NCBI GenBank assembly: GCA_963817525.1
Contig: CAWFOU010000007.1
Span: 672,001-736,000 of the forward strand
DNA length: 64,000 nucleotides
Direction: 5' to 3'
From: an uncultured archaeon
GTDB lineage: Archaea > Thermoproteota > Nitrososphaeria > Nitrososphaerales > Gagatemarchaeaceae
In this document: piece after piece, positions 6,477 through 31,400 of the stretch
Layout of the letters: each line of letters opens with the position of its first letter
How positions within the stretch are numbered: position 1 is the first letter of the stretch
Translations under genes and position numbers: made by a program
Notes under the pieces: generated by a model
The model's database searches: none
Told to the model about the DNA's origin: nothing
The model's input: the letters and a program-made list of their open reading frames with translations, nothing else

Positions 6477-6818
6477 TTAATCTTTGGACTTTAGTATCTT
6501 GAGTATCTTTTCCAGCGTCTCGGTCGGAAGGAGCTTCCTCCATCCCGCCGTGAAAGTCCTGAGCTCCTCGATGGACCTCGGCATGATGTTGACCACCTCG
6601 GTGGCCTCGATCTCGCTCAGGCCACAGTCGGTCTCTAGCTGCTTCTTCAGCTTCTTCGCCGCTTCCGGCGTGCTCTTCGCGAACTTCGAAGTGTAGTCGA
6701 GCGTCCTCTTCTGGATTTGGTCGGCCTTCTCCACGTCGATCTTCTCCAGGATCTGGTGCGCCTCGCTCAGCGTGAGCGTCTTCTTCTGCCCCGAGGGCGC
6801 GATGGGCTCTGCCGACAA
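6477..6818 (-). CDS. rpo4: RNA polymerase subunit Rpo4 (RpoF)
   Basis: QKRTLDYTSKF, VVNIMPRSIEELR; synteny with L21e and DUF655. Confidence 0.9.
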   Translation of the reverse strand: MSAEPIAPSGQKKTLTLSEAHQILEKIDVEKADQIQKRTLDYTSKFAKSTPEAAKKLKKQLETDCGLSEIEATEVVNIMPRSIEELRTFTAGWRKLLPTETLEKILKILKSKD

Positions 6819-13826: not shown

Positions 13827-13898
13827 GGGCTGGTAGTTCAGCGGTAGAATGCCTGCCTCGCACGCAGGAGGTCAGGGGTTCAAATCCCCTCCAGTCCA
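13827..13898 (+). tRNA. tRNA-Ala(CGC)
   Basis: Cloverleaf GGGCTGG/CCAGTCC with G3:U70, anticodon arm CCTGC-CT CGC AC-GCAGG, GTTCAAATC; TATA-like TTTTAATA upstream. Confidence 0.97.
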
Positions 13899-13933
13899 CA
13901 TATTCTCTCTGCTGGCAGTTGTATTGGCGCTAA

Positions 13934-14710
13934 TCATCGAATCTTGCAGATCTCGGGCATCTGTCTCTTGTGCTCCGAGGCCTTGTATTTCGCGAGGATG
14001 GCGTCGAGCTTCGGACGGCTAAGCTTCAACCTCGTAGCCACCGCCGATGTGGTGAGCCCCTCTTCGAGCTTGAGCTTGAACACCTGGTCGACGACGTCGT
14101 AGGTGCTGCCTATCTCGTCCTCGGCTATGTGCCCGGGCCAGAGCCTCGGGCTGCTGCGCTTCGCCACAATCCGCCTGTTTATTCCCAGCGCCTCCCCGAG
14201 CCTCCTCACCTCCGTCTTGTAGAGGTCGGCGATCGGGAGGATGTCGACCCCGCCGTCGCCGTACTTTGTGAAGTATCCGAGGAGGAGCTCCGATCGGTCC
14301 CCCGTGCCGACGACCAACCTGTTCGTCATGTTGGCATGGTAGTAGAGGAGGGACATCCTGATCCGCGCTCTGAGGTTCCCCTCGGCGAGCCGGTTGGACT
14401 CTAACGACTTCATGTACGCCTTGTGGATTGGGGCGACGTCGATCTCCTTCACCTCGATGCAGAGCTCGCTCGCGACGAGCTTCGCATCCCTGACGTCCTC
14501 GTCGGGGGTGGCCCTGAGGTCTGGCATTATCAGCCCCATGACCCGCCGGCTGCCAAGGGCCTCCACGCAAAGGTAGGCGGTGACGGCGGAGTCTATCCCC
14601 CCGCTGATGCCAAGGACCGCCCCCTCGGCCTGACTCTCCTCCACCTTCTTCTTGATGAAGGAGACGATCCTGCGCTTGACGGAGGAGTGGTCGAGCTCTG
14701 TGGCTAGCAA
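13934..14710 (-). CDS. nadE: NH3-dependent NAD+ synthetase (probable TTG start 14710)
   Basis: LGISGGIDSA, GNLRARIRM, GYFTKYGDG. Confidence 0.95.
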   Translation of the reverse strand: MLATELDHSSVKRRIVSFIKKKVEESQAEGAVLGISGGIDSAVTAYLCVEALGSRRVMGLIMPDLRATPDEDVRDAKLVASELCIEVKEIDVAPIHKAYMKSLESNRLAEGNLRARIRMSLLYYHANMTNRLVVGTGDRSELLLGYFTKYGDGGVDILPIADLYKTEVRRLGEALGINRRIVAKRSSPRLWPGHIAEDEIGSTYDVVDQVFKLKLEEGLTTSAVATRLKLSRPKLDAILAKYKASEHKRQMPEICKIR

Positions 14711-16869: not shown

Positions 16870-16940
16870 GACGCGTGGCAGTTTCGTCTTCATCCTGACT
16901 CGCGTCAGTCGAGGTTGCCCGTCGAAGCACGCCACGCGTC
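16870..16940 (-). ncRNA. Putative small structured ncRNA (non-tRNA); integration target
   Basis: 10-bp closing stem GACGCGTGGC/GCCACGCGTC, second stem, two hairpins capped by GNRA loops (GCAA, GCGA) on minus strand. Confidence 0.5.
16925..16940 (+). repeat. attL of outer element, AAGCACGCCACGCGTC
   Basis: Perfect 16-bp direct repeat with 30620-30635; 12 bp upstream of integrase ORF. Confidence 0.85.
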
Positions 16941-16952
16941 CCTTGCCCTACG

Positions 16953-18185
16953 ATGTTAAAACGCTATTCAAGCTATCGGGACGGTGAAGACGGGACGCTA
17001 TACAACTACGACTACTGGCTGAAGAACGCCTGGGAGATGCTCGACCGCTCGCCCAAGGTCAGCCAGCAGGACAAGGAGCGGGTTAGGGCGTTCGTCGAGA
17101 ACCTCAGAGTGAGGGCCCTGGGGACGGGGAGGCTCGCCAAGCACGTCCAGAAGCTCAAGGTGATGCTCGAGATCCTCGACGTCCCGCTTGACAGGGCGAC
17201 CAGGGCGGACGTCGAGAGGCTGGTCCTCGCGCTAGAGGAGAGGCACCTCCGCCCGGTCACCCTGATAGACTACCTCTTCATCATCAAGCGGTTCTTCAAG
17301 TTCGTGAAGTACGGGAACGTGGACAGGGAGACCCCCTACCCGGCGGAGGTGGCCTGGATCAAGAGGAGGATGAAGCCCAGCGAGGGCAGGACGGCCGAGT
17401 TCCTCACGCCCTCGGAGGTGAAGGCCATGATAGCAGCCGCCGAGAAGACGCGCGACAAGGCGATGATAGCCGTCGGGTTCGAGGGCGGGTTCAGGACGGG
17501 CGAGCTCCTGGGCCTCGAGATCCGCGACCTCTCGTTCGACGAGATGGGGGTGAAGGCGAAGGTGAGGGGAAAGACGGGAGAGCGGATCGTGAGGCTGATA
17601 TCGAGCGCGCCCCTCCTGACCGCATACCTCGAGACCCACCCGGAGTCGTCGGACCCCAGCGCGCCGCTGTGGCTCACGGAGGTGGGGAACTGGAAGAACA
17701 AGAGGGTCTCGTGGAGGGGGTGGAACGGCTCGCTCCAGTACATCGCGAAGAAGGCGGGCATCAGGGGAAAGCGCATCCACAGCTACCTCCTGCGGCACGG
17801 CTCGGCCACCGACGCGGCGAAGTATCTCTCCGACGCGGAGATGAAGGTGAGGTACGGCTGGACGATGGACTCGGGGATGCCGGCGGTCTACGTCCACCTG
17901 AGCTCCCAAGACCTGGACCCAAAGCTCGCGAGGATGTACTCAGGGAGGCCCCTGGAGCCGCAGAGGCCCGAGTTCGCCCCCGACGCCTGCCCAAGGTGCT
18001 CAGAGAAGAACACCCCAGGGATGAAGTTCTGCGGGAGGTGCGGTACGCCGCTGAATCGTGCTGAATTGGCCAAATCCTCGATCGAGACGCAGGAGATGAA
18101 GAACGACCTCCAAGACATCAAGAGGCTGCTCAGCGGATACCTCTCTCCAGGCTCACAAAACCCAACCGGAGGTAATGACAACTGA
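16953..18185 (+). CDS. Tyrosine integrase with C-terminal zinc ribbon
   Basis: GFEGGFRTGELL, KGKTG-like RGKTGER, HSYLLRHGSAT, RYGW...MPAVYVHL, CPRC...CGRCG. Confidence 0.93.
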   Translation: MLKRYSSYRDGEDGTLYNYDYWLKNAWEMLDRSPKVSQQDKERVRAFVENLRVRALGTGRLAKHVQKLKVMLEILDVPLDRATRADVERLVLALEERHLRPVTLIDYLFIIKRFFKFVKYGNVDRETPYPAEVAWIKRRMKPSEGRTAEFLTPSEVKAMIAAAEKTRDKAMIAVGFEGGFRTGELLGLEIRDLSFDEMGVKAKVRGKTGERIVRLISSAPLLTAYLETHPESSDPSAPLWLTEVGNWKNKRVSWRGWNGSLQYIAKKAGIRGKRIHSYLLRHGSATDAAKYLSDAEMKVRYGWTMDSGMPAVYVHLSSQDLDPKLARMYSGRPLEPQRPEFAPDACPRCSEKNTPGMKFCGRCGTPLNRAELAKSSIETQEMKNDLQDIKRLLSGYLSPGSQNPTGGNDN

Positions 18186-18266
18186 TTCGGGACAGTGAAG
18201 CGATGACCAAGGCCACCATGTGCTTCTCTGCCCGCCGCAGGTGCCTACCAACAGCATGAAACACAC

Positions 18267-18464
18267 TCAACCGATGTGCCTCTCGAGCCTCTCGACAAGC
18301 GCCAGAACCCTCTCCAGATCAGAGCGCTTGACGCGAATGTAGGGCTCTTCCACGTCTGATGGGCCCCGGTTTTCGCCGGCATGCGAGTTGAAAACGGCGG
18401 CGTCTTTGACCTTGGAAAGGGAGACAAGTCCGACGTCCGGATCCAGATTACTTGAGGCCTTCAT
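18267..18464 (-). CDS. Small hypothetical protein or fragment
   Basis: 65-aa ORF with amphipathic C-terminus; no recognisable family. Confidence 0.25.
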   Translation of the reverse strand: MKASSNLDPDVGLVSLSKVKDAAVFNSHAGENRGPSDVEEPYIRVKRSDLERVLALVERLERHIG

Positions 18465-18596
18465 GGATGTCTGGGCACACGCGACTTTTAACGACGGTGA
18501 GCAAGGACGAGATGCTGGCGATGGTAGGGGCTTTCGCAGCCGCGCTACCCAGTTGGTACAACGAAATCATGGCTGCCGCGGCCACTTGATCCGTTC

Positions 18597-19385
18597 TCAA
18601 GATGCGCGGAAGTACGCGAAGACAAGCGCGCCCCATTCGTCCTCCGCCAGAACCGTGTATGTCCCAGGGTGGAAGCTTGTGAACGTATCTCCCTGATAGT
18701 ACCCAGAGACGGTCAAGGGATTCAAATTATAGGTCGCTGTGGCATTCCCTGTCGGGCATGGACTCACGCCGACGCAGCCGTATGAGGCGCCCCCGTCGCT
18801 CGTCGGTTGGAAGAGAAACCCAGTCGGGTTCCCGTACCCGAAGTACACCGGGCAGTTGGGCGTGGCTAAGGGGTCGACAAGGTCCAGCTGCCTTGCAGCT
18901 GTGACGTTTGATGACGTATAGTATCCCTCGGCCATGGCGAAACGTACGGTGTCGCTCCCGCAGACTGCCACGTTGGTCCCGTTAATAGGGACCGCCCAGT
19001 CGTTCGCGGACGTAACATTGGCAGTGGACGAAGAAGGATTGTAGACGTCGGCGAACAAGCTCACGTTCACCCCTGTCGCGGATGACGATGAGGCGTTCAG
19101 ATAGAGTCGGAGTTCAAGGCCGTTCGTGGGATTAGTAGCTGTCGTCGCTGTCAACGTTGAGGTCGCTGTTGTGGTTGACGTCGTAATCAAAGTCGTGGTC
19201 AAGGTTGAGGTCGACGTGCTGGTCGACACGACCGTCTCGGTCGCGGTAAGCGTCGTGGTCGATGGATGTGTGAAGGGAGGCTGGCCGATGACGACCACGG
19301 CAAGAGCGGCGGCAAGTATCACAGCGATCAAAGACAGGCCCACTATCGCTCCTGCGATTGCAGGGCTGCGCCGCCGAGACGACAT
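18597..19385 (-). CDS. Membrane-anchored Thr-rich extracellular hypothetical protein
   Basis: TM helix, poly-Thr linker, NGLELRLYLN...GTYTVLAEDEWG C-terminal domain. Confidence 0.75.
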   Translation of the reverse strand: MSSRRRSPAIAGAIVGLSLIAVILAAALAVVVIGQPPFTHPSTTTLTATETVVSTSTSTSTLTTTLITTSTTTATSTLTATTATNPTNGLELRLYLNASSSSATGVNVSLFADVYNPSSSTANVTSANDWAVPINGTNVAVCGSDTVRFAMAEGYYTSSNVTAARQLDLVDPLATPNCPVYFGYGNPTGFLFQPTSDGGASYGCVGVSPCPTGNATATYNLNPLTVSGYYQGDTFTSFHPGTYTVLAEDEWGALVFAYFRAS

Positions 19386-19489
19386 GGCTGTCTAGGCGAA
19401 AAGACCAAGGCTCGTTTTAAATCGTTTGGAAGAATCGTCGGGTTCAGCTTCATTGGCAGGGTTGTAGGCTGAGCTGGATTAATTGGGCT

Positions 19490-19705
19490 GGTCGGAGCCC
19501 GTCGTCCCCGACCATGTTCCCCTGGACCTTGGGCCTGAACCCGCAGAAGGTGATGAGGGAGATTGAGGCCTTCGCCCTGATGTCGGCACGTCGAGGATTC
19601 TCCTGAGCTCCTGCCGGGTGCGAGGCACCTCTTTTCTCGTACGTGTAGTCCAAGGCGCCGTAGATTCTGATGCTCTTGGGGGTCTCGATCGAGAGCGAGT
19701 TGTCG
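19490..19705 (-). pseudogene. Frameshifted fragment of an integrase paralogous to 19916..21205
   Basis: Across frameshifts reads IRIYGA...TRQELRRILDV/ADIRAKASISLITFCGFRPKVQGNMVGDDGLR, aligning by eye to VNIKGT...[43 protein letters not shown]. Confidence 0.75.
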
Positions 19706-19838
19706 ATTGTAGTGATGAGACGACAGCTAAAGACGGTCAGACAAATCCGTCAAGCTCACTGCCAAGGTCCGGGTTAGCTTGCATCGACCGAAACGCGGAC
19801 TTTTTAGCGTCGTCCCCCCGGTAGGATTCTCCTAAAAT

Positions 19839-19858
19839 AATTAGTTGCATCCCTTCCG
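19839..19858 (+). repeat. Left att-like site of inner element, AATTAgttGCATCCCTTCCG
   Basis: Direct repeat with 30518-30537 (12-bp perfect core, 18/20 overall); upstream of integrase. Confidence 0.7.
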
Positions 19859-19915
19859 GCCCACTTAAACTCTTAAGAGAATCCCTTATTAGAAACCGAG
19901 TTCCCAAGGGAAAAC

Positions 19916-21205
19916 ATGCCCGCTGGGAGCAAGTACAACCACCTTCTCGAAGATCAGGACGTCCGCAGATGGTTTGAGAACCTCGAAGCGAAGTCGATCA
20001 TAACCGCCACGGTCTATCTTCGGACGATGGGACTCTACTGCGTGCTCGAAGGGACGACCCCAAAGAAGATACTCGCGGAAGCCAAGTCCAAGAGATTCCG
20101 CGACGAGTTCACGGACTTTATCCGGCGGATGGAGAAAGACGGGAAGGCTGGCTCCTACATAGAGCGGTTCAAGAAGGTCATCCTCTCCTGGACCTTCTAC
20201 AACAACCTCGACGTGAAGCTGAAAGTGAACATCAAGGGCACGTCAGAGACGCCAACAATCGCCAACGAAAGGATCCCGAGCAAGGACGAGCTTTCGAGGA
20301 TTCTCCGGATGGCCTCGCTTCGAGGAAGGGTCTCCGTTGCGATGATGGCGTTCAGCGGTCTGAGGCCGGAGAGTCTCGGCGACTACCTAGGAACGGACGG
20401 CATCAGACTCGCGGACTTCACGGAGGCGAAGATATCTGGCGCTAGGGTTGAATTCGAGAAGGTTCCGGCGATCCTGCTCGTCAGGAGAACCCTGAGCAAG
20501 GCAAGACATCCATACTTCTCGTTCGTGGGGACCGAGGCAATAACCTACATCCAGGAGTACATTCAGGAAAGGACCAAGTCCGGCGAGAAGCTGACCCCTG
20601 AGAGCCCTCTGCTGGCGTTCGACCCGAGAGGCGTAAGGAAGAACGCTTTCCTGAGAACCATCCTTGTGACTCGGGACATCAAGGAGGCGATAACGAAGGC
20701 AGGATTCACTTGGAGGCCCTACGTCCTGAGGGCCTACTGCGACACCAACATGATAGTGGCCGAGTCCAAGGGCCTGATTTCTCATCCATACCTCCAGTTC
20801 CTCATGGGGCACAAAGGGGACATTGAGGCCAGGTACTCCACCAACAAGGGCAGGCTCCCGCCTACGATGATCGAGGAGATGAGGGCAGTTTACAAGAAGT
20901 GCGAGCCCCTGCTCTCCACCAAGGCAGAGTCCGCCAGCGAGGAGCAGATCAAGAAGACACTGAGGGAGCAGTTTCTCGTTGTGGCGGGATTCAAGAAGGA
21001 AGAGGTCGAGAAGATGAACCTCGAAGAGATGACCGACGAGGAGCTCCAGAACGCCGTGAGACAGAGGCTGGTCGGCATGATGACCGGCAACGGTTCGAGG
21101 CAGAAGGTCATCCCGATTCAAGAGGTAAGGTCATTCATCGGGCAGGGATACGAGTACGTGGCGTCGCTCCCTGACGGCGGGGCGATAGTGAAGGTGCCGT
21201 TCTGA
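19916..21205 (+). CDS. Tyrosine site-specific integrase
   Basis: [34 protein letters not shown]. Confidence 0.92.
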
Positions 21206-21216
21206 GGGCGAGAGGC

Positions 21217-21687
21217 ATGCAGAGGCACGACTTCTACGATGTTCTCGGTGTTGCGAGGACGGCATCGAGCGGAACAATCAAGGAAGCCTACCGGAGGCTG
21301 GCCATCAGGTATCACCCCGACAGGAACAAGTCTCCCGACGCGGAGGAGAAGTTCAAGGAGGTCTCTCAGGCCTATTTCGTCCTGTCAGACGCCGAGAAGA
21401 GAGCCCTTTACGATGCTCTAGGCCCTGACAAATACGACGACCCTAAGGAAGTCTTCCGCTACTACGTCGAGCGTGAGGCGACTGCGCGCGAACTGAAGCG
21501 GGAGTACGAGGAGTCCAGGTCAAGAGAGCAGACCGGCATCATAGAATCGATGGGAGTGATCCTCTTCGGCCTCCTCGTGATAGACTTCGTGATTCCTACG
21601 TGGGTCTTTGGCCCATGGTTCTATGTGTTCAACGCCTTCCTTCTCCTTGCCCTCGTCAGCGGAGTCTACAGCTGGTCCAGGGCTTGA
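21217..21687 (+). CDS. J-domain (DnaJ-like) protein with two C-terminal TM helices
   Basis: DFYDVLGV...[29 protein letters not shown]; hydrophobic C-terminus. Confidence 0.88.
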
Positions 21688-21712
21688 TTCAACAAAAGGA
21701 GACTCGCTTGTG

Positions 21713-22243
21713 ATGGCCCTTGAATTTCTGAAGAGACGCTTCCGCGTGCAGAGGCTGGGAGACCTGACCCTGAACTGGATAAAGGTCCTCGCCTACCTGG
21801 AGAGCTCGAAGAGCGGAAGCAGGGAACCGTCTGCCGAGAAGCTGGCAGACGAGTTGGGCCTGGGGTCTGAGAACGTCATAACGGTCTACGCCTACCCCGC
21901 CCTTCGCAGGAAGGGATACGTCAGGCTGCTCGCCAGCAACCTGCCGGAGAGGGACGCCAACTCCTACGAGCTGACCCCGAAGGGCAGGAAGGCGCTCGGG
22001 TACTTCCTCAACACGTTCGGGTTCGCGGAGATGGGGACAATGGTAGTCGTGAGCCTGATTGTGGGGGCTGTGATTGGGCTGATGTCCCTCGCATACCTCC
22101 AGAACCCTCCCTTCTTCCCCCTTGCCCTGGGCTTGGTCATCTTCGCTGCCGTCATCGAAGCCTTCTTCTTCGCGTTCTCCGTGTGGGCGGCAAGGCAGAG
22201 GAGGAGAGAGGTGCTCCAAATCATGCTTCAAAAGCCCGAGTGA
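21713..22243 (+). CDS. Winged-helix protein with two C-terminal TM helices
   Basis: SAEKLADELGL...LRRKGYV...YELTPKGRK then two hydrophobic segments; AAGGAG upstream. Confidence 0.7.
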   Translation: MALEFLKRRFRVQRLGDLTLNWIKVLAYLESSKSGSREPSAEKLADELGLGSENVITVYAYPALRRKGYVRLLASNLPERDANSYELTPKGRKALGYFLNTFGFAEMGTMVVVSLIVGAVIGLMSLAYLQNPPFFPLALGLVIFAAVIEAFFFAFSVWAARQRRREVLQIMLQKPE

Positions 22244-22335
22244 CTTTGAGAGAATCGTAAGGAATAGCGGCGCAGAAACTGAGCTTCTCGGCTCACTCCC
22301 GGCGTCTATCATCTTACCACGCCATACTATGTGCC

Positions 22336-22512
22336 ATGCAGAATGTCGTGGACGTTCATCCGCTAAAGAGGACGGCAGCGAAGATCCTGCCTGACGACTC
22401 GATTCTGCGCAGGGTGCTGCTGTCGGAGCCCGATTCGTTGGAGGCGGGGGAATACGTCGCCAAGCTGGGCACATGGCTCGTGATTCTGAGGGAGGAGAGG
22501 ACGACGGATTGA
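22336..22512 (+). CDS. 58-aa helical protein (absent from ORF track), coupled to ATPase
   Basis: MQNVVDVHPLKRTAAKILPDDSILRRVLLSEPDSLEAGEYVAKLGTWLVILREERTTD; stop overlaps TTG start of ATPase (TTGA 22509-22512). Confidence 0.7.
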   Translation: MQNVVDVHPLKRTAAKILPDDSILRRVLLSEPDSLEAGEYVAKLGTWLVILREERTTD

Positions 22513-24413
22513 ACTTCTGGAAGTCCAAGCAAAGACGCGAGGACGAAGAGGAGGAAGCGGAGGCGTGGAGGCGGCAGCAGGAGTTCGAGGAGCAAGAGAT
22601 GAAGAGGGTGGAAGAGAGGGAGAAGCGTTGGAGGGAACTGCAGGAGAAGTACCACGTAGGCCGGGATGAGATAGAATACCAGTCGACGTCAGGCCTCGAC
22701 CATTGGAACCCCCGTCACCACGAGGAGCAGAAGCCGACTCCAGGGCACGTTGGGATAATCAGGATCGTCCAAAGGAACTCCGGCGAACAGTCCCAGTCCG
22801 AGCCTTACCGTAACGAGGAGTTCAGGTTCAAGTGGATAAACGAGGTCAAGAGGGTCGAGAGCAAGGAGAACGCGAACGTCTTCACGAGCGGGGCGTCGGG
22901 GGCCGGGAAGAGCAGCCTGGTCCGGCTCCTCCTCCGAGAATTCGAGGGACGACAGAAGGTCATCTTCTCGTTCAAGGTGAACGACACGCACCTCAGGATC
23001 GGCTATCCTGTCGCCGACGTAAGCGAGCTCGTCCCCAACCCGTTCGCGGATGTCGAGGCCTTCGTGAGCGCCTTTGCGATCGCGTTTCCGGTCAGCACCA
23101 TCGGGGTGACGGCCAGCCAGATCCCTTCTCTCGTCCAAGAACTTGCGTACGGGTGCACCTCCTGGAAGGGCTTCAACCGAAAAGTCGAGCGCAGGATAGG
23201 CGAGACCAAGGACAGAGTGCAACTCTCCGCGCTCTTCTTCATTCAGGGGCAGGCCAAATCCGTTCAGCTTGAAGAGAGTGGGAAGAGGCCCGATGCAATC
23301 AATCAGGCCATCCACACGGGCATGGACATCGTGCTCGACTTCTCTAGGTTATCGGACCCCGCGAAGGCGTTCTACGCCGAGCTGCTCCTCAGAGGGATAT
23401 GGAACGAGATGCAAGGGCAGACGACGGAAGCGAGGAAGAAGATTATCCTCTACGTGGACGAGGCCCACCGCCTCACCCGGGGCACCTTCGAGAAGTACCA
23501 CTCGGTCCTCGTCGAGATGGCGAGGGAGATAAGGGCGAGGGGAGCGCTCTGGACCTCGACCCAGAACTACACCGACATCGAGGACAGGATCAGGAACCAG
23601 TTCGCCACCCAGTTCGTCTTCAACACCTCGTCCAAGTCCGACCTCGAGGCGCTGAAGGCAATCGACCCGATGCTCTCCTGGGCCGTATCGGGGCTCTTGA
23701 AGCACCACTTCGTGGACGCGAAATCCAAGAGTGTTCACAAAGAGATCGAGATCCACACGTTCGTTCCGGAAAGCGAGAAGGATGTCCGACCCACCCCATT
23801 GGGCGAACTTCTAGCTGGAGTACTTCCACAGGAAGCCGGGACCGTAGACTACGACAATACGGTCAAGGAAGCGCTGGCCAAGGAAGGCGTCGTCTGGGTC
23901 TCTGCCCTTGCAAGCCAGTTCAGCAAGGACGGGAGAGTCGACAAGGACTCCGCGAAGCTGAAGGTCAGAGACGCCCTGGAGAAGCTGGTGGACGCTGATG
24001 ACCTTCAGAGGATGAGGTACGACGGAGCCGAAGCTGGCGGGACCATCGTCCTGTACTTCGCGAAAGGCGGGGATGAGAAGGTCAGCAACCTTCACAAGTA
24101 CATGGTGAGGCAGCTCGTCGATAGGCTGCGGGAGAATAACCAGGAGGTCCTCAACGTGGCAGACTCGGGGCAGAGTCTTCCCGATGTCGAGACGGAGAGC
24201 GCGTACTTCGAGATCGAGACAGGCTTGAAGACGAGGACGAGCGACCTTGAGGAGCGCATCTCGAGACTCAGTTCTACCAAGCCGTTCTTCGTCGTTGTTC
24301 CAAATTCCGACTTGGCGGGGAGCGACAGATACAGCTCTCTGAGAAGTCCCAGGGTTACGGTGACAACCCTTGCGCGGTTCCTGAAGGGACAGGCAGTGAC
24401 GCCCCAGCGGTGA
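22509..24413 (+). CDS. HerA/FtsK/VirB4-superfamily ATPase fused to C-terminal PD-(D/E)xK-like nuclease
   Basis: Walker A GASGAGKS, VLDFSRL, Walker B ILYVDEAHRL, STQ..DI...IRNQF; C-terminal LHK...LPDV....FEIETG...FFVVVPN. Confidence 0.8.
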   Translation: MNFWKSKQRREDEEEEAEAWRRQQEFEEQEMKRVEEREKRWRELQEKYHVGRDEIEYQSTSGLDHWNPRHHEEQKPTPGHVGIIRIVQRNSGEQSQSEPYRNEEFRFKWINEVKRVESKENANVFTSGASGAGKSSLVRLLLREFEGRQKVIFSFKVNDTHLRIGYPVADVSELVPNPFADVEAFVSAFAIAFPVSTIGVTASQIPSLVQELAYGCTSWKGFNRKVERRIGETKDRVQLSALFFIQGQAKSVQLEESGKRPDAINQAIHTGMDIVLDFSRLSDPAKAFYAELLLRGIWNEMQGQTTEARKKIILYVDEAHRLTRGTFEKYHSVLVEMAREIRARGALWTSTQNYTDIEDRIRNQFATQFVFNTSSKSDLEALKAIDPMLSWAVSGLLKHHFVDAKSKSVHKEIEIHTFVPESEKDVRPTPLGELLAGVLPQEAGTVDYDNTVKEALAKEGVVWVSALASQFSKDGRVDKDSAKLKVRDALEKLVDADDLQRMRYDGAEAGGTIVLYFAKGGDEKVSNLHKYMVRQLVDRLRENNQEVLNVADSGQSLPDVETESAYFEIETGLKTRTSDLEERISRLSSTKPFFVVVPNSDLAGSDRYSSLRSPRVTVTTLARFLKGQAVTPQR

Positions 24414-24434
24414 CGTGGGGGCCGCTTATTGCTC

Positions 24435-24637
24435 GCCCATAGCATGCAACACCCTTCAGGCTCGTCCTTCGCTCCGCGGCGAATTCACCCCCCGCGATGC
24501 CTTCGGCACCGCTCGCTGCGCTCGCTTCGCTTCCCCCCTCTTCGCCGCTCCGCTCGGACTTCGCCTTCACCCCGCTTCGAAGCGGGGCCGCTCATTGTCG
24601 CTTCGCTTGATTCGCGGGGGTGTTGCATGCTATGGGC
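24435..24637. other. Fold-back non-coding element with 20-bp perfect terminal inverted repeat and internal hairpins
   Basis: GCCCATAGCATGCAACACCC (24435-24454) / GGGTGTTGCATGCTATGGGC (24618-24637); 18-bp palindrome 24570-24587; repeated CGCTYCGCT. Confidence 0.75.
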
Positions 24638-24680
24638 TCGCGAGGAGGGAGAGGAAAGGGGGAAGAATTGGGCTATCCCG
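24629..24680 (+). repeat. G-rich ~52-bp motif, copy 1
   Basis: GCTATGGGCTCGCGaGGAGGGagaGGAAAGGGGGAAGaATtGGGCTATcCCG; matches 28077-28130. Confidence 0.85.
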
Positions 24681-24818
24681 GCGGAAAGAGACGGTTCTCG
24701 AGGCGTACCCCTTCTACGGGTACTACATGCGTCACCGGAGAGGAAAGTAATCAACCTGGTTCTAGTTTCGTAAAATATAAACATAAGAATCGTTCTTTGC
24801 GAATTCGGTATCATCCGC

Positions 24819-25094
24819 TTGTGGCATGGGATTAGGAGGAGGACGTGGAGAGACATTATCGCTTCGGTCCTTGAGTGCCTTGTCAAGGCGCCTTCGACCC
24901 AAAACAAGATAATGACCTCGACAAATCTGAACCGAGACACCGCAAGAGACTATCTTCAAGGGATGGTCTCCCTGAGGCTGGTCAGGACTCTCTCTGACTC
25001 CAAGGAGCACACGATCTACGCCATGACGGAGAAAGGGAGACGCTGGCTCAAACTGTACAAGAGCTTGCTGGCTGAGGAAGAATCGCAGGAATGA
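24819..25094 (+). CDS. Winged helix-turn-helix transcription regulator (HTH_45-like)
   Basis: RRRTWRDIIASVL...KIMTSTNLN...YL...YAMTEKGRRWL. Confidence 0.8.
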   Translation: MWHGIRRRTWRDIIASVLECLVKAPSTQNKIMTSTNLNRDTARDYLQGMVSLRLVRTLSDSKEHTIYAMTEKGRRWLKLYKSLLAEEESQE

Positions 25095-25181
25095 AGCAAG
25101 GACCTCCATCCGAATATCTTCGAAAGCCATTACTGGCGTACGATCACAGCGAAATTTTCTGAGACCATAATCTGTAAAGCG

Positions 25182-25208
25182 GGATTTGTAATCCCGGATT
25201 ACAAATCC
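25182..25208. promoter_or_regulatory. 27-bp perfect palindrome (candidate operator)
   Basis: GGATTTGTAATCC-C-GGATTACAAATCC, just upstream of TATA-like TTTATTA of gene 25273. Confidence 0.6.
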
Positions 25209-25272
25209 GGGATGTTAGATTCTGCATGATTTATTACCCTCGGATTAGTGACATTAGCCGAGGAATCAGAAC

Positions 25273-26091
25273 TTGACCTCAAGAAAGGGCGCACTTGGCG
25301 TAGTGAGGCTTGTGTTCTTCGCGCTGCTTACGCTTCTGTTGCTCAATTCGGTCGGGATGTTGAACCGGTTACCAATGGCCTACGCCCAAACTTACACGTG
25401 CTCCGACCAGTACACAAGCCATAACACTGCTGCTCCTAACGGTGGTGTTGGGTACTACTACGAATGGGCCAGTAGCAGCAACAGTAACGAATACGGCGTC
25501 TATGGCGAGCTAAAGGCCACGTCATGGAATTATGATGGCGATACGTCCGGGCATGAAGTGCTTTGGGTAAACATGGCTCTCTCCGGGGGTTACTGGGCAC
25601 AGTCAGGGGTCGTCGCCGGCGTTTTGCCAGGAAACTCATATTCATCAACTCGGTATCCATATGTGGAGTGGAATGCACCGGGACAGTACTACGCATACAT
25701 TTTCACTAGTTATCCGATTTCTGGCACGGACACGATTTATGCAGAGGACTACGTAGAAAGCTATAGCGGCGGCAACTACTACTACGAAGTGTATGTATAT
25801 AGCACCAGTTACGCAACAGCATGGTATACGACAAAGAGTTTCGGGAGCACATATTATCTAGGTGACCCGACAACAGCAGGAGAGACCTATTACACTCAGA
25901 CTAGTGAGAACTGCGACCTATACGTCAATTACTCCTCGTCGCTTGCCTACTCCTCAAGTGTCAGTTCTAGCCCGTCTTGGACATCCTGGTCAAGTTCTAG
26001 CATCACCTATACCGATACAAATTACACCTATTTCCAGAATAGCGCAACATCGTGGAACTTCTGTTCAGATAACTATGTCAGTTATTGCTAG
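25273..26091 (+). CDS. Secreted Tyr/Ser-rich protein, glutamic-peptidase-like (G1/neprosin-type fold)
   Basis: Signal peptide; YGVYGEL, LWVNM...YWAQSG, YVEW, AGET motifs echo the catalytic Gln/Glu layout. Confidence 0.5.
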   Translation: MTSRKGALGVVRLVFFALLTLLLLNSVGMLNRLPMAYAQTYTCSDQYTSHNTAAPNGGVGYYYEWASSSNSNEYGVYGELKATSWNYDGDTSGHEVLWVNMALSGGYWAQSGVVAGVLPGNSYSSTRYPYVEWNAPGQYYAYIFTSYPISGTDTIYAEDYVESYSGGNYYYEVYVYSTSYATAWYTTKSFGSTYYLGDPTTAGETYYTQTSENCDLYVNYSSSLAYSSSVSSSPSWTSWSSSSITYTDTNYTYFQNSATSWNFCSDNYVSYC

Positions 26092-26104
26092 ATTGAAATG
26101 GAGA

Positions 26105-26848
26105 ATGTTCGAGAGATTGAAAAGCAGAATCGTAATCGCCCTAATCATAACGGCCTTGGCGCTGGGGTCTGGCGTTCTTGTCTCGACCTTTTCGGTTGAC
26201 AGCGCCATCAGCCAAAATGGCATTCCAAGTGCTACTTCAAATGTGAACCCCACTCCCTCGAGTGGTGCGATGCCGATGAAACTGGTCTTGCATACGCCAC
26301 AGTATGTGGAAGGCATCATTCATCAATCATTGATTTTACCGGATGTGACCGTTCTCGGTCCCTCGTACAGGATTCTGGGGGCCATGGTCGAAGGCCCAGT
26401 GAACTTGACTGCGACCAATCAATCACCATGGGAAGTACTCATCTACCTCTCGAACCAGCCTACTTCTTCCTTCGTGAATGGAACCACGACTGACCTTGAC
26501 GTCTTGAAAAGCGGAGGAGTCGTGATCGCCGAAGATGGAGTTCCGACTGGAATGGCGCTGAATAGTACTGCCGCTGCCCAAGCCGATCTGGCACCTCAAG
26601 TGCTTTGCACCGGCAAGGGGATGAATCCGACGCCTGCTGATTCGAGCTGCACGACTCAATCCTACACGGGGAATGGCTATATCGTGACCCAGAATGGGCT
26701 CGCAATTGTTGTGAACCCGGGGGGGCCGGGACTAGTGTGGGTTGACAATAGAAACCGCATGGGAGTGAGTATCGACGGCGATACACAAACCGTTCAACAA
26801 TTGCTGGACCTTGCGAGCACATTGACTGAACCTACGACGACACAGTGA
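26105..26848 (+). CDS. Membrane-anchored extracellular hypothetical protein
   Basis: TM helix after MFERLKSR; C-terminal LVWVD...VSIDG...QQLLDLA. Confidence 0.65.
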   Translation: MFERLKSRIVIALIITALALGSGVLVSTFSVDSAISQNGIPSATSNVNPTPSSGAMPMKLVLHTPQYVEGIIHQSLILPDVTVLGPSYRILGAMVEGPVNLTATNQSPWEVLIYLSNQPTSSFVNGTTTDLDVLKSGGVVIAEDGVPTGMALNSTAAAQADLAPQVLCTGKGMNPTPADSSCTTQSYTGNGYIVTQNGLAIVVNPGGPGLVWVDNRNRMGVSIDGDTQTVQQLLDLASTLTEPTTTQ

Positions 26849-26920
26849 TATGAAACCGGTTTCAGTGTTGTACAACCAGGTCTATTAAGGTCGGAGCATC
26901 ATATTCAGTGAAGGCGCAAG

Positions 26921-27436
26921 ATGAATTCGCCACCAGTCCGTAACAAGCGGCTCTACGCAACCATCGTGGCAGCGATAGTCATCGCCGCGGTTGTAGCCTC
27001 TGCTACCATCATTGCCTCATCTGCACTCTATACCACGGTCACAAAAACTACGACCACCACTGTTTTCCTAGCGTCATCTTCCAGCGCCTGCGGACAACTC
27101 GCATCAACTCCGTTGTTCTTACTCATAGCGAACAGTTCGACAGGAAGGCGGATTAGTGGAGTACCAGTCGAAGTCGAGAAGACCACACCCACCGACTTGT
27201 GCAACCCAATCTCGACAACAACAGTCAACCTTGGCACCATGGAGACGAACGTGAATGGGTCGATTGAGCTCTGCTGCAGTGGTTCAACGTTCTTCTTCAC
27301 ATTCACATATATGGGTGCCCATTACCAATTCAACTCGACAGCAGAAGGGGCAGAGATTGCTCAATGCGTCTGGTTCAGCATACCATCGGCTACATCAACT
27401 ACTGAGTTTGCAGCTCCATTCGACCCTCAATGCTAA
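26921..27436 (+). CDS. Membrane-anchored Thr/Cys-rich hypothetical protein
   Basis: TM helix, Thr linker, prealbumin-like ISGVPVEV...TNVNG. Confidence 0.65.
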   Translation: MNSPPVRNKRLYATIVAAIVIAAVVASATIIASSALYTTVTKTTTTTVFLASSSSACGQLASTPLFLLIANSSTGRRISGVPVEVEKTTPTDLCNPISTTTVNLGTMETNVNGSIELCCSGSTFFFTFTYMGAHYQFNSTAEGAEIAQCVWFSIPSATSTTEFAAPFDPQC

Positions 27437-28076
27437 GTGCCCCGATACAGACTGCAAAACGGCAAGGATAACGGCATTCAATCCACTCGATGCGTAAGAA
27501 GAGGACGGAGGACGCAGTGAGCTTTCCCCCGGGAGGTGCACCCACATGGGAGACGCCCTTCCGCTGCCGTCGGTTCTTCCCTCGTGGGTGCCTCGGCCAT
27601 ACCAAGCGAGGCAGGGCCTCCTCTTAACGCGGCCGAGAGCCGAAAGCGGGTGGAAGCGGGCCCGACGGTCCTCCTACCAGAACGAGTCCACGCCCGTGTT
27701 GATTCTTCGGTCATTTCCGTTAGGCTTGGACATGCTCAGATGAGACTGGCTTTGAGCATATAATTGTGCCAACGAGGTCTCTCGGGACGGGAACCCTTAG
27801 CACCCCATCTCAATCGGATTTTGCTAGGGTGTGAAGGAGAGAATTATTGCCCACGTCTCAAATAATTGCTTGCAGCCCTTCCGAGTTGAACCGAGCTGTT
27901 CTCACTTGGTCTAGAGTCAGGGGATTGTTTCCTCTGGTCCAAGCCGACATCTCCAAATCCAATGGTCCACAATGTGAATTTGAACTCAATTGCGTTTAAG
28001 AACCGGCGACCGCACTTAACTCTTCGCGTCCAAGACACCGACGGTGTCAAAGCGGGAAGTCGAATCTGCGACATAC

Positions 28077-28130
28077 GCTATGGGCTCGCGTGGAGGGGGG
28101 AGGGAAAGGGGGAAGTATCGGGCTATTCCG
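28077..28130 (+). repeat. G-rich ~54-bp motif, copy 2
   Basis: GCTATGGGCTCGCGtGGAGGGgggagGGAAAGGGGGAAGtATcGGGCTATtCCG. Confidence 0.85.
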
Positions 28131-28357
28131 AAAGAAACAAACCCGAAAAGGGATACACCCGTTGAAGGGGTATCTTTCCGCCTATGGTTTCGGTTGATCT
28201 TCTACAGAAGCGCGTTGCCGAGCTGAGCAATCTGGTCGCAGTCATTCACTGAAGCCCTGAAGAACGACGACTGCTTAGTAACATTCCCATGACTACAGCG
28301 GTGTATTTTAACCAAAGCGGTAACCTTTAATAGAAGAATCTTCTGCAAACGATTTTC

Positions 28358-29654
28358 ATGAAAGGCGGCCAGTCTCTTCGACATGCGTACGTCAGAAGCC
28401 CGTTGCTCTTTCTGCTGGTGATTTCTCCTGTTGCGATGCTCGCTACAGCTGGAGTCAGTGCTTCAGTCGCTGCATGTACAAATGCCACTGTCGACCGCGG
28501 CAGTTCTGGATACGAATGTACCTTTCACGCAACAGAGCGCCGTAAGTCTCACAGAGTCATCAACAGAATATTTGAGCGCAGTCAGTGGTTACAGCTCTAC
28601 ATTGCTCGGTATCGGCAACGAGTGGAATTTTGATTCCGCCACGTGCAGCGTTTCATTCGATAGCTTCGCCATGAACTATCTCCTGAAGGCTTCAAATGGA
28701 ACACAATTCGAACTCACGTTGGGGGTTAAACCACAGACCGATGATATATTCGGGGCCACAATGCGACCCGTGGTAAAGCATACTCTCCTCCCGATTAATC
28801 ACAGTTCTTCGAGCACGTATTCTACGACCTATTCTGGGTACGCCCTCGCAGCCAATGGCAATTATAACTCGGCAGTAAGCTACAGCACAGCTTATTGGTA
28901 TATCCCTCAAATTTCTGCTCCATCAGGAGGTTGTGGTTCTAGTATTTTTTCAAATCCTCCTAAATGCTGGCTCGACGTCTGGGTCGGATTGCAGAATAGC
29001 ACCTACGATGGGACTAACTACGTGCCGGCTCATGGAGAAGTATTTCAGACCGGAACGGAGGGAGATTGCTTCAGTTCATGCACTGGGAGCGGTGCCCCTG
29101 AATATTCAGGGTGGTCTGCATATCTTAATGCTGATTCGAGTGGGATTGTACAGAATCTTGTACAATCTTGCAACAGTGATTTTTCTGCCTCGGCCGGTGA
29201 TGAGATGTACGGAGTCGTAGGCACTGCGTACGAAATCAGTGGCGGATCTAGTAGCACCTTCGACACCGAGCTGAGAGACTTTAACAACGGCTCTATCTGC
29301 GACTTTTCGTATAATTCATCAACCTCTTGCGGACAGTCCGATTGTAAAATCGCAGGCACAGAATACTTCGCGGACTACTTTATCGAAACGCCTCAGGATG
29401 GGAGTGACAGCGGGACCCCATTCATGTTGCCGAAGTTTACCGAGATATCCGACGCTGGCGACCTGTTTTATGTAATGGGGATGCTATCCTCCTCTCAGGG
29501 TTCGTACCCCTATTACAATGACGGCTATTACTTGACGTCGGATATGGGCAACAGTGGAACGCATAACACGCATACTTCCGCGATGTCCGAAAACAGCGGG
29601 AGCACCTATGCTTATTTCAACGAAAAGTGGTTAAGCAGTGCAAACACCGGGTAG
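28358..29654 (+). pseudogene. Secreted family G1 glutamic peptidase (Peptidase_A4/eqolisin-like), frameshifted near 28485
   Basis: STTYSGY, AYWYIP, DVWVGL, FQTGT, YSGW, AGDEM, ADYFIETP, LPKF; signal peptide in frame of 28358, body in frame of 28431. Confidence 0.75.
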
Positions 29655-29764
29655 TCGATTCCCTTAGGGAGTCATTGATATTCGCGCTCCGGCTTGGGAT
29701 GATCCTTGCTCGGATATTCCAAAAGACGTAATTTTAGTGGAGGCTCCCTTCTTAGTTAGGAGGA

Positions 29765-30394
29765 ATGAACGTGCGTTTTGCGAACGTTACAAGGAGCAAT
29801 CAGGGCGTTCTGGTTGGCGCCCTTGCGGGTCTCGTGATAATTGTTCTCTTGACCCTGCAAGTTGCAAACTCCGCCGGCGACCTTGGGATTAAGCCAAAGA
29901 CAGTCACTATCACACACGTCGAGACTCCGACCTCGTCTACCGAGCTGATTGTCGAATGGGTCAACGACAGCTTCTCTCAGCACATGCTCCTGCTCGGCTC
30001 GGGAAATGTTTCCGCGATCGTCTCGCAATACGCAGGAAACGCGAACGTCTCGTGGTTCGGAGAAGTGGGGCCATGCTTCGGCGGCACATACCCTCTTGCT
30101 GGCGACAACGGCAACTTTAGCCAACTCATGAACGCCTTCATCGTTAAGTACGCCCATACCTTGGTTATAGGGAAAGTCGCTCGGACGATAATGTCCCAGT
30201 CAAACGGATCAGTAGTCGTCGAATCCGCGTTCGGGTTTGCGACACGAGGTTCTTCCTACGGTATCAACAACGGCACAGTCTCCGCCCAAGACTTGTATAC
30301 ATACTCTGCGACGAATGGAGCTTGGTTGATTTCGCGAGAAGCCTGGGACTTTACTACATTCGATGTGATGTACCTCGGCTGCGTGGAGGGGTGA
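29765..30394 (+). CDS. Membrane-anchored protein with NTF2/SnoaL-like domain
   Basis: TM helix; NVSAIVSQYAGNANVSWFG...NGAWLISREAWDF. Confidence 0.6.
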   Translation: MNVRFANVTRSNQGVLVGALAGLVIIVLLTLQVANSAGDLGIKPKTVTITHVETPTSSTELIVEWVNDSFSQHMLLLGSGNVSAIVSQYAGNANVSWFGEVGPCFGGTYPLAGDNGNFSQLMNAFIVKYAHTLVIGKVARTIMSQSNGSVVVESAFGFATRGSSYGINNGTVSAQDLYTYSATNGAWLISREAWDFTTFDVMYLGCVEG

Positions 30395-30517
30395 CATGAA
30401 ATCAAATACGACCCGAGTAACCGAAGAGGCTCTATTCAACGGCTTGCCAGCGCGGCGGTTCCACTAGCTCAGATTGTTCTAGGCACTATTCGAAGGCCGA
30501 AGGAGATTCGCTTAAGA

Positions 30518-30537
30518 AATTAATGGCATCCCTTCCG
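30518..30537 (+). repeat. Right att-like site of inner element, AATTAatgGCATCCCTTCCG
   Basis: Direct repeat of 19839-19858. Confidence 0.7.
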
Positions 30538-30619
30538 ACCTTAACCCTTGACTCTCGATTATTCTCACAGACTTCCCACCCAAGGAACCCGGCAAAGTGT
30601 TTCGAACACGTAGCATAAT

Positions 30620-30635
30620 AAGCACGCCACGCGTC
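30620..30635 (+). repeat. attR of outer element, AAGCACGCCACGCGTC
   Basis: Perfect repeat of 16925-16940. Confidence 0.85.
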
Positions 30636-31308: not shown

Positions 31309-31400
31309 GGCCCTGACCGGGATTTGAACCCGGGTCGGAAGGTGACTGCGGATTTCTCCTCCACAGCCTTCTATGCTAACCAGGCTGCACTATCAGGGCC
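31309..31400 (-). tRNA. tRNA-His(GTG) with 17-nt intron (31344-31360) at 37/38, encoded G-1
   Basis: GCCCTGA/TCAGGGC acceptor, GAAGG-CT GTG G[intron]A-CCTTC, BHB-compatible pairing. Confidence 0.95.

Follow-up and report, generated by a model that had tools for sequence, protein, structure and literature searches.

A HerA/VirB4-type ATPase with a winged helix and a restriction-like nuclease domain on archaeal plasmids and integrated elements: a possible cut-and-pump enzyme for element DNA

The HerA–NurA, Sir2–HerA and DUF4297–HerA systems and the C-domain of DndH share a common motor fold and the logic of a ring translocase paired with a nuclease. VirB4 and the coupling proteins TrwB/VirD4 are alike in fold, and the coupling proteins carry two N-terminal membrane helices. 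In Streptomyces, one membrane-associated pump of the FtsK superfamily with a C-terminal winged helix-turn-helix (wHTH) domain, TraB, suffices to move small plasmids, and its recognition repeats (the clt locus) adjoin the traB gene. Here we analyzed a gene at positions 22509..24413 of a 64,000-nt stretch of DNA from an uncultured archaeon of the Gagatemarchaeaceae (GenBank assembly GCA_963817525.1, contig CAWFOU010000007.1, positions 672,001–736,000 of the forward strand; the whole stretch is called the window below). The gene lies in a mobile island and encodes in a single chain a motor of the HerA/VirB4/TrwB type, a wHTH domain and a restriction-endonuclease-like domain. The protein probably cuts and pumps DNA, either moving the element that carries it or attacking foreign DNA.

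Comparison with these systems revealed partial likeness to each. The motor matches the HerA-type and DndH structures at Z 20–26, but the window protein has its nuclease in cis behind a wHTH domain, lacks the HAS-barrel N-domain and reaches 16.8 of the 22 bits required by Pfam HerA_C, and its family mostly carries membrane segments. VirB4 (Z 24.7) and TrwB (Z 21.7) are close in fold, and two N-terminal hydrophobic segments, the coupling-protein pattern, recur in 51 of 128 full-length relatives, in contrast to the window protein itself, which has none; as virB3 lies before virB4, so a small membrane protein gene lies directly upstream of the ATPase gene in Thermoplasmata. NCBIfam scores for VirB4-type families are nevertheless far below their cut-offs, no component of a type IV secretion system was recognized, and a wHTH and a nuclease domain are foreign to VirB4 and TrwB. 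With FtsK, SpoIIIE and TraB the window protein shares the C-terminal winged helix (residues ~458–532); however, TraB is FtsK-like, FtsK is a weaker fold match here (Z 16.7), and TraB has no nuclease. The putative catalytic residues follow the BamHI/BglII variants, in which the triad reads D...E-x-E or E-x-Q instead of D...E-x-K, although the window C-terminus has no nuclease match in sequence-profile searches and fold matches of only Z 7.3–8.7. The best match in a defence library (PADLOC) is mad8 of the MADS system (E 6e-11, 264 residues, 131–394), and MAD7–MAD8 is likewise an ATPase–nuclease module, needed for MADS defence according to the accessible part of its description (PMC13662399); MADS, however, divides the module between two proteins, whose bacterial operon has eight genes including a methylase, and no other MADS gene was seen beside the window ATPase in the 3–4 neighbours scanned.

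One family member has been listed before. ORF1 of the Picrophilus oshimae plasmid pPO1 (NC_016049; 7,646 bp, six open reading frames (ORFs)), the sole match among 72,556 plasmid records, shows 31.7% identity over 79% of the window protein (tblastn, E 2e-66) and has the same Walker motifs and the same H...D...E-x-E...K pattern; unlike the window protein, it has two N-terminal hydrophobic segments. Its authors listed it in 2011 as 'FtsK-related' (COG0433) without further analysis, and the accessible part of their paper gives ORF1 only the COG, with neither a wHTH nor a nuclease domain named (Angelov et al. 2011, PMC3177234). Our literature search, which did not cover subscription papers and supplements, found no description of an ATPase–wHTH–nuclease fusion on archaeal plasmids, of its anchoring or of its small companion. 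The parts are of known kinds, one member was listed in 2011, and the combination of motor, wHTH and nuclease is apparently undescribed.

The gene, its small upstream neighbour and the parts of its product are given here, with residues numbered throughout in the 646-aa frame that begins at ATG 22473.

22336..22512, + strand: 58-aa ORF (orf58), its stop overlapping the TTG start of the ATPase gene as TTGA
22509..24413, + strand: ATPase–wHTH–nuclease-like gene, 634 aa from TTG, or 646 aa from the in-frame ATG at 22473
22509..22652, + strand: N-terminal charged long helix, residues 13–60 (AlphaFold2 secondary structure, alignment, hydrophobicity scan)
22728..23810, + strand: HerA/VirB4/TrwB-type P-loop motor with helical insertion, residues ~86–446 (VIA, Foldseek)
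22890..22916, + strand: Walker A, GASGAGKSS, residues 140–148
23445..23474, + strand: Walker B, ILYVDEAHRL, residues 325–334
23844..24068, + strand: wHTH domain, residues ~458–532 (AlphaFold2 model, VIA, weak sequence matches)
24078..24395, + strand: restriction-endonuclease-like (PD-(D/E)xK-type) domain with H541, D571, E580-x-E582 and K586

Within the FtsK-HerA superfamily, the motor falls into the HerA/VirB4/TrwB group. In an alignment of 27 relatives, G140, G143, G145 and K146 of Walker A and D329, E330, H332, R333 and L334 of Walker B are invariant, as are Q364, R374 and Q380 after Walker B, with N365 and Q376 nearly so; these residues are candidates for the polar-Gln and Arg-finger positions of the superfamily. 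A whole-protein AlphaFold2 model built from the 27-row alignment (mean pLDDT 83.2) was compared with known structures. Foldseek against the PDB returned HerA–NurA, the DndH C-domain, VirB4, anti-phage HerA complexes and TrwB at E 2.7e-11 to 5e-9, and VIA-align gave DndH-C Z 25.9 (rmsd 3.0, 297 aligned), HerA 23.1, anti-phage HerA complexes 20–24, TrwB 21.1–21.7 (323–331 aligned) and the packaging ATPase STIV B204 18.4. The model has a helical insertion between Walker A and Walker B at residues ~190–285, as in type IV coupling proteins. It has no HAS beta-barrel: residues 13–60 form one long helix, only two strands precede the core, and structural alignments with HerA begin at model residue 68–91, opposite HerA chain residue 107 onwards.

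Sequence libraries placed the motor less closely. No Pfam family reached its cut-off among the 12 listed at E<=0.1 (AAA_22, 25.7 vs 27 bits; FtsK_SpoIIIE, 13.9 vs 24), and DUF87, TrwB_AAD_bind and T4SS-DNA_transf were absent from that list. The NCBIfam models VirB4_plasma and TraC-F-type scored 35.3 and 21.9 bits against cut-offs of 590 and 567, respectively. The best library matches were phrog_2666, 'terminase large subunit' (E 2.9e-13, best stretch residues 316–396), and mad8. The Protein Atlas returned only generic archaeal clusters of the HerA/DUF87/TrwB type, the nearest named of which carry TrwB_AAD_bind, which serves as a lead only.

The C-terminal part was folded alone (residues 455–646) with 25 aligned segments from related loci, giving a model of pLDDT 85.7 and pTM 0.84 that consists of a winged helix followed by an alpha-beta-beta-beta-alpha-beta core (helices H and strands E in the numbering of this C-terminal model: H85–100, E105–108, E118–120, E124–127, H136–144, E151–155). 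The wHTH matched many wHTH regulators in VIA (Z 8.0–8.7) and gave weak MarR/Lrs14-type sequence matches in a PDB profile search. For the last domain, VIA returned BstEII (Z 8.7, 108 aligned), AF1548 (8.0), VRR_NUC (7.7), Can2 (7.7) and the FokI cleavage domain (7.3); the same search returned cobalamin-binding Rossmann-like domains at Z 7.3–7.8, and its typical background lies at Z 7–8. Foldseek with the C-terminal model gave nothing at E<=0.001, Pfam at E<=1 on the 25 segments gave no nuclease family, and the PDB profile search of the C-terminus gave weak matches to wHTH regulators and no nuclease family. The fold taken by itself thus offers moderate evidence, from a predicted model, for a nuclease domain.

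Conservation of the motif carries more weight. H541 falls in the first helix, D571 immediately ahead of strand 2 and E580-x-E582 (E580-I-E582-T583) in strand 3, with K586 four residues on. In 160 aligned domains, from 158 of 211 proteins, the histidine is kept in 158, the aspartate in 150 and the first glutamate in 151 (with D in a further 8), the third position is E in 150 and K in 8, and the final lysine is kept in 144. The lysine usual in D/E-x-K is replaced by E582 in the window protein, and eight of the 160 relatives read D-x-K there; a minority with D-x-K exactly where the majority has E-x-E fits a PD-(D/E)xK site. Variants with E-x-E (BamHI) and E-x-Q (BglII) are active enzymes. Motif conservation is the more persuasive evidence for a domain of nuclease type, which would presumably be active. 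The initial annotation, made from the letters of the window, had proposed an FtsK-HerA motor with Walker A and B motifs, a wHTH-like linker and a C-terminal nuclease-like motif; motif conservation and fold matches bear out the motor, the three-domain architecture is supported by fold and motif conservation together, and the PD-(D/E)xK topology that it expected at the C-terminus appears in the model, with VIA matches close to background and a conserved motif.

Both ORFs, the 58-aa one and the ATPase gene read from ATG 22473 (646 aa), appear in a mechanical ORF list. TTG 22509 is the favoured start of the ATPase gene because the N-termini of close relatives coincide with it (MNLWKS..), because GGAGGAG stands 8–14 nt upstream of it (with nothing comparable before ATG 22473), and because the TGA stop of the 58-aa ORF (22510–22512) overlaps it; the database copy of the protein, 100% identical, has 634 aa and so begins at this TTG. 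The initial annotation had noted the overlap with correct coordinates. Homologues of the 58-aa ORF lie upstream of the ATPase on the same strand in 24 of 47 related genome loci (tblastn or profile search; tblastn E 6e-21 to 2e-3), and K11, L24, L28, E31, K43, T46 and W47 are invariant in its alignment across two phyla. No family was found for it in Pfam, PADLOC, PHROGs or NCBIfam and no neighbour cluster in the Protein Atlas; no homologue was found on pPO1, a non-integrated plasmid of 7.6 kb that also encodes Cdc6, a methylase, a restriction enzyme and a serine recombinase. Judged by this conservation, the 58-aa ORF is a real gene and a conserved member of the ATPase operon, and its product is probably a small, helical protein, which may be the partner of the ATPase that had been proposed. 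It abuts or overlaps the ATPase start in the window's clade, where translational coupling is plausible from the overlap, and is separated from it by two genes in Thermoplasmata.

The family to which the ATPase belongs is uncharacterised and has no Pfam family. A word-indexed search returned 66 relatives and an exhaustive profile search 698 at E<=0.001, and at E<=1e-30 there are 133 representative clusters, most of 580–720 aa and aligning from the motor to the C-terminus. Relatives occur at 47 loci in species-representative genomes of Nitrososphaerota, Thermoplasmata and Micrarchaeota and in single bins of Nanoarchaeota, Aenigmatarchaeota and others. Within the fetched flanks, 27 of these loci have a tyrosine integrase, 20 of the type encoded at 19916–21205 in the window and 7 of another type; ParA was found at 22 loci, Cdc6/Orc1 at 15, a methylase cluster at 13 and a serine resolvase at 12, and 15 loci, some of them short contigs, have no integrase, ParA or Cdc6. 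Thermoplasmata contigs of 12–17 kb share a fixed order: an integrase, c6 (a wHTH with zinc ribbons), the 58-aa homologue, c4, c3 (small, with multiple transmembrane (TM) segments) and the ATPase, followed by ParA, a small protein, a resolvase, Cdc6 and type III restriction-modification; these contigs look like integrative plasmids. On pPO1 the ATPase gene makes up a quarter of the plasmid, which also has its own restriction-modification pair. A search of IMG/VR (2.9 million viral contigs) gave 145 pattern matches, none confirmed, and 50,697 INPHARED phage records contained no relative. Archaeal plasmids and integrated elements are almost the only places where the family occurs. Its spread is patchy: 4 of 201 sampled genomes of the window's class have the ATPase, and 55 of 201 (a count that includes one unpublished genome, G132) have the integrase family, which has nine matches in the window's own genome.

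In the window, the ATPase gene lies in a discrete mobile element of 13,695 bp, since the element has 16-nt flanking repeats and an island-free allele exists. A 969-nt contig of the soil-metagenome run X4 joins 16924 to 30620, skipping 13,695 nt, with 16 letters that fit both sides; this contig is the island-free allele. The flanking host genes encode NAD synthase and quinolinate phosphoribosyltransferase (to 16853) on one side and a DUF72 protein and a DinB-type polymerase (from 33706) on the other.

16925..16940, + strand: left 16-nt direct repeat, AAGCACGCCACGCGTC, island boundary
30620..30635, + strand: right 16-nt direct repeat, AAGCACGCCACGCGTC, island boundary
16953-18185: tyrosine integrase with zinc ribbon (Pfam Phage_integrase, 3.7e-14)
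19916..21205, + strand: 429-aa tyrosine-recombinase-like protein (tblastn, 47–83% identity), found with the ATPase in 20 of the 47 loci

The 429-aa protein has a weak match to phrog_1 (integrase), and its C-terminus was read by eye as R..H-x-x-R..H..Y. It is 58–61% identical between the window and the Thermoplasmata plasmids (L020–L043), whereas the adjoining ATPase is only ~35% identical, which suggests, from sequence identity, that the integrase module was recently exchanged across phyla. Pfam scans of 8 + 16 chosen ORFs between 9.8 and 35.6 kb, with shorter ORFs outside the scan, found no HUH relaxase, Rep, Cdc6, MCM, primase or type IV secretion system family in the island, and no methylase; the earlier statement that the element has no HUH relaxase, Rep or type IV secretion gene thus held in these 24 ORFs. 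In the same 24 ORFs, Pfam recognized no VirB6-like channel, pilin or VirB3, for which the small membrane proteins encoded upstream of the ATPase could be too diverged.

We then considered how the enzyme may reach the membrane. The window ATPase has no N-terminal hydrophobic segment in a Kyte-Doolittle scan, and the only 19-aa stretch that was flagged, at residue 194, corresponds to a conserved helix within the core of the ATPase, which is well modelled. Among the 128 full-length relatives, 87 have one to four N-terminal hydrophobic segments before Walker A. The absence of TM helices that had been reported is therefore true of the window protein but is not a trait of the family. Where anchors are lacking, the gene immediately before the ATPase region is for a membrane protein: in Thermoplasmata it is c3, and in the window there are two proteins with C-terminal hydrophobic segments.

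21217..21687, + strand: J-domain (DnaJ) protein (Pfam DnaJ, 2.1e-27) with two C-terminal hydrophobic segments
21608..22243, + strand: orf211 (211 aa), matching wHTH weakly and ending in two hydrophobic segments

The related locus L002 has a 68% identical copy of orf211 and an 88% identical copy of the J-domain protein, each at the same place, and is the only locus to share the latter. No PADLOC family matched the neighbours scanned at E<=0.01, the only hit being MkoB in orf211 (E 0.025), and orf211 is a possible membrane partner of the ATPase. A membrane-tethered co-chaperone such as the J-domain protein is an unusual cargo for a mobile element. Homology of the window's upstream proteins to the families upstream (c3, c4, c6) or downstream (c11, c12, c26) of the ATPase in Thermoplasmata was rejected, since hhalign of orf211, the J-domain protein, the ATPase N-terminus and orf58 against all six gave probabilities <5%.

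Directly downstream of the ATPase gene lies a structured element.

24424..24709, + strand: fold-back with G-rich tail, neighbour of the ATPase gene, ~240–290 nt across loci

The fold-back arms (24435–24454 and 24618–24637) are 20 nt long and 100% complementary, and a 226-nt stretch folds far better than its shuffles (z -6.1 on the + strand, -6.25 on the - strand). The element is conserved at the DNA level in L002 (11937–12224) and in a second related locus, L003 (12237–12557), where the ATPase has 83% and 61% identity, respectively, with the one in the window. A gapped motif scan of metagenomes gave 17 stretches, of which alignment confirmed nine as true copies. RNAalifold on nine distinct sequences predicted 65 pairs, in which 96.7% of cells are paired, against 36–47% with slid partners; 15 of the 65 pairs show compensatory changes, against 2–5 when slid, and none of 500 shuffles reached the observed covariation score. 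In helices 1–9 there are 19 G-U cells against 4 A-C cells (A-C being G-U on the other strand), which weakly favours an RNA from the + strand; a DNA structure is also possible. An Rfam scan of 20 kb returned nothing at E<=1 that covers the fold-back, and a scan of 361 nt gave only four chance rows, of E 6–10. The C-rich loop of the fold-back (CUUCCCCC) is, by eye, complementary to GGGGGAAG in the G-rich tail. The G-rich 3' tail (24629–24692) recurs at 28076–28140 in the window (28077–28142 in another comparison) and in L002 at 14448–14551, 17428–17475 and 19908–19989, on the + strand and 130–300 nt upstream of a gene, and may be a shared operator, leader or regulatory motif within the elements.

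The initial annotation had supposed that the enzyme acts on this adjacent fold-back, and had named as a check whether homologues are consistently followed by the fold-back or its G-rich motif. By that criterion the supposition is not supported, and we rejected the fold-back as a site that accompanies the ATPase family-wide: nhmmer recovered the complete element at just 2 of the 47 genome loci with a homologue, and 3 of 12 element-bearing loci have no ATPase gene, the element there directly following an integrase (L054, L055, L064). Some of the metagenome copies among the 12 are near-identical pairs. In the other loci, the element stands directly after the ATPase gene in six (the window, L002, L056, L057, L058, L060), after an extra small ORF beyond the ATPase in L003 and behind another gene in L069, and L066 is too short to assign. 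The fold-back element lies on mobile elements that have the 429-aa integrase, with or without the ATPase, and is a candidate for a novel RNA, or a structured site in DNA, of mobile elements in archaea. On pPO1 (L049), the region directly after the ATPase gene (6240–6560) contains an inverted repeat followed by many GTAAGTAA-like units inside the annotated ORF6; these correspond to tandem repeats TR3/TR4 of the plasmid's authors, in the accessible part of their paper (PMC3177234), and could be iterons or a binding site of the wHTH.

We tentatively favour the interpretation that the protein is a single-chain, membrane-associated enzyme that cuts and pumps the element's own DNA, most likely for transfer. 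The initial annotation had put forward a nick-and-pump enzyme in place of a relaxase and coupling protein, with a HerA–nuclease antiviral system as its alternative, and the evidence leans to the first of these without being decisive. A presumably hexameric ring ATPase of the HerA/VirB4/TrwB type would be the motor, the winged helix would position the enzyme on DNA, and the BamHI-like D...E-x-E domain would cut or nick the DNA at that place. Docking at the membrane would use the N-terminal anchors in most relatives and, for the window form, the two small membrane proteins encoded upstream. The job would be to process and translocate element DNA, in cell-to-cell transfer or in related handling of the excised or plasmid form, and the enzyme would replace a relaxase and a coupling protein in archaea. 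The motor fold, the C-terminal nuclease motif, the residence on mobile elements, the patchy spread and the absence of viral relatives count for this interpretation. Transfer as the purpose is suggested because the anchors follow the pattern of coupling proteins and of VirB3–VirB4, because the Thermoplasmata operon fixes small and multi-TM proteins beside an integrase, because a member is present on the six-gene plasmid pPO1, and because related backbone genes, as seen in the integrase, cross phyla of one habitat. It is suggested also because archaea lack an apparent relaxase: no homologue is apparent in archaeal genomes or conjugative plasmids, according to the accessible part of PMC9905601.

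Several observations weigh against it. The window protein has no anchor of its own, and no pilin, VirB6-like channel or other transfer gene was recognized in the island or on pPO1. Streptomyces TraB is the type of a double-stranded DNA pump for which a nuclease is not required. The ATPase is absent from most elements that have this integrase, since the integrase family occurs in 55 of the 201 genomes and the ATPase in four; some homologues stand alone among host genes (L015, L017, L018); and the adjacent fold-back is not tied to the ATPase gene. The best library and fold matches, moreover, include defence ATPases (mad8, DndH, Sir2–HerA, DUF4297–HerA).

These matches lead to the alternative that we rank next, which is possible but on the whole rather unlikely: the protein may be a defence or exclusion effector carried as cargo, in which a HerA-type ring would be loaded onto the DNA of a virus or a competing plasmid for degradation by the fused nuclease, a cis-fused version of HerA–DUF4297, a HerA–NurA-like system or MAD7–MAD8, with the anchors placing the enzyme at the site of DNA entry. 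Besides the mad8 match, the description of MAD7–MAD8 as an ATPase–nuclease module, and top fold matches that include DndH-C and the anti-phage HerA complexes, the strong retention of catalytic-type residues agrees with such a role. So do the neighbours in other clades, which are often of restriction-modification, toxin-antitoxin or other defence type (C5 and N6/N4 methylases, Eco57I, Eco47II, Vsr, GmrSD and DndB, as well as Schlafen AlbA_2, PIN, Fic, HEPN and HipA), and the methylase cluster of 13 of the 47 loci; the sporadic spread in 4 of 201 genomes and the many elements that have the same integrase family without the ATPase fit as well. Known HerA-type defence ATPases are soluble, however, whereas 87 of 128 relatives here have N-terminal hydrophobic segments, and the constant gene order of the Thermoplasmata plasmids, in which the ATPase keeps company with an integrase, small proteins and a multi-TM protein, resembles backbone, not cargo. 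The gene, furthermore, occupies a quarter of pPO1, which already has a restriction-modification pair, the nearby methylases have restriction partners of their own, and PADLOC found no other MADS gene in the 3–4 neighbours scanned.

An FtsK-like housekeeping role is improbable. In such a role, a DNA pump with a sequence-reading wHTH would clear or orient plasmid copies at division and help a recombinase, through multimer resolution or control of integration and excision with the neighbouring recombinase. The order of motor and C-terminal wHTH is that of FtsK with its gamma domain, a tyrosine recombinase is nearby in 27 of the 47 loci, and ParA and a serine resolvase occur in the Thermoplasmata plasmids and pPO1, whose authors filed ORF1 as FtsK-related. 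FtsK is, however, a weaker structural match than HerA, VirB4 and TrwB, the Pfam FtsK_SpoIIIE score stays below its cut-off, the nuclease domain has no role in the model, and most elements with this integrase family have no ATPase. Still less probable is an unusual replication initiator, a wHTH-guided nickase and helicase with which the excised element would begin to replicate by the rolling-circle or strand-displacement mode. The 13.7-kb island has no Cdc6, MCM, primase or Rep family by Pfam, and a nuclease, a DNA-binding domain and a motor together follow the logic of Rep–helicase fusions; the Thermoplasmata plasmids and pPO1, however, have the ATPase together with Cdc6/Orc1, most members have membrane anchors, and the pPO1 authors saw no single-stranded intermediates, in the accessible part of their account (PMC3177234). 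A packaging enzyme of an unrecognized archaeal virus or vesicle-transferred plasmid is very improbable, since the phrog_2666 'terminase large subunit' match, the fold match to STIV B204 and the pairing of ATPase and nuclease that a terminase requires are set against the lack of relatives in IMG/VR and INPHARED and of any capsid or virion family in the island or the plasmids.

Other features of the island were recorded alongside. A small wHTH regulator is encoded downstream of the fold-back element, and six Ser/Thr-rich ORFs have no Pfam family; five of these were scanned against PHROGs, with no match.

24819-25094: small wHTH regulator (HTH_45, 3.4e-12)
18597-19385, - strand, and 25273-30394, + strand: six Ser/Thr-rich ORFs

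Several of the Ser/Thr-rich proteins have an N-terminal hydrophobic segment, weak relatives occur in L002, L003 and L006, and they are possibly surface proteins of the element. A 30-nt motif, CTAAAATAATTAGTTGCATCCCTTCCGGCC, is present in three copies that are 77–80% alike (19832–19861, 27857–27886 and 30511–30540); two lie 55–85 nt upstream of + strand genes (19916, 30597), and the copy at 27857–27886 lies upstream of the ORF at 28431. Metagenome contigs diverge from the window at 19821 and 19864, flanking the first copy, and a promoter or the recombination junction of a nested element are possible explanations of the motif. On the - strand at 19450–19653, just upstream of the intact integrase gene, a 43-residue fragment resembles residues ~130–170 of the 429-aa integrase family in reverse orientation and is likely a remnant of another integrase copy; at 19495 and 19631, contigs from runs X2 and X4 depart from the window sequence. 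tRNA genes were rejected as the integration target, since tRNA-Ala (13827–13899) and the tRNA found by Rfam at 31309–31399 fall outside the 16-nt repeats. The latter, 91 nt on the - strand, was not called by ARAGORN and possibly contains an intron, and ARAGORN placed a 94-nt 'tRNA-Pyl' (anticodon cta) at 55580–55673 on the - strand.

The ways in which plasmids and integrated elements of archaea process and mobilize their DNA have yet to be explained. The present analysis defines a sizeable unnamed family, of 133 representative clusters, in which a single polypeptide combines a motor with a domain that reads DNA and a nuclease of restriction-like type. The architecture would be new either way, as a relaxase-free transfer enzyme or as a cis-fused, membrane-bound HerA–nuclease immune effector, and, as pPO1 comes from a cultivated organism, transfer or processing can be tested against defence at the bench. 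As a candidate for a new RNA of mobile elements in archaea, the structured element next to the gene offers a lead of its own. In a wider view, which we consider unlikely as it stands, the family would be the missing archaeal counterpart of the relaxase and coupling protein, a self-contained, membrane-docked enzyme that recognizes, cuts and pumps element DNA. If this is true, integrated elements and plasmids as small as 7.6 kb could travel from cell to cell with no type IV secretion system, even across phyla with a common habitat. Between Nitrososphaerota and Thermoplasmata the integrase found with the ATPase shows ~60% identity, and Micrarchaeota have the ATPase as well.

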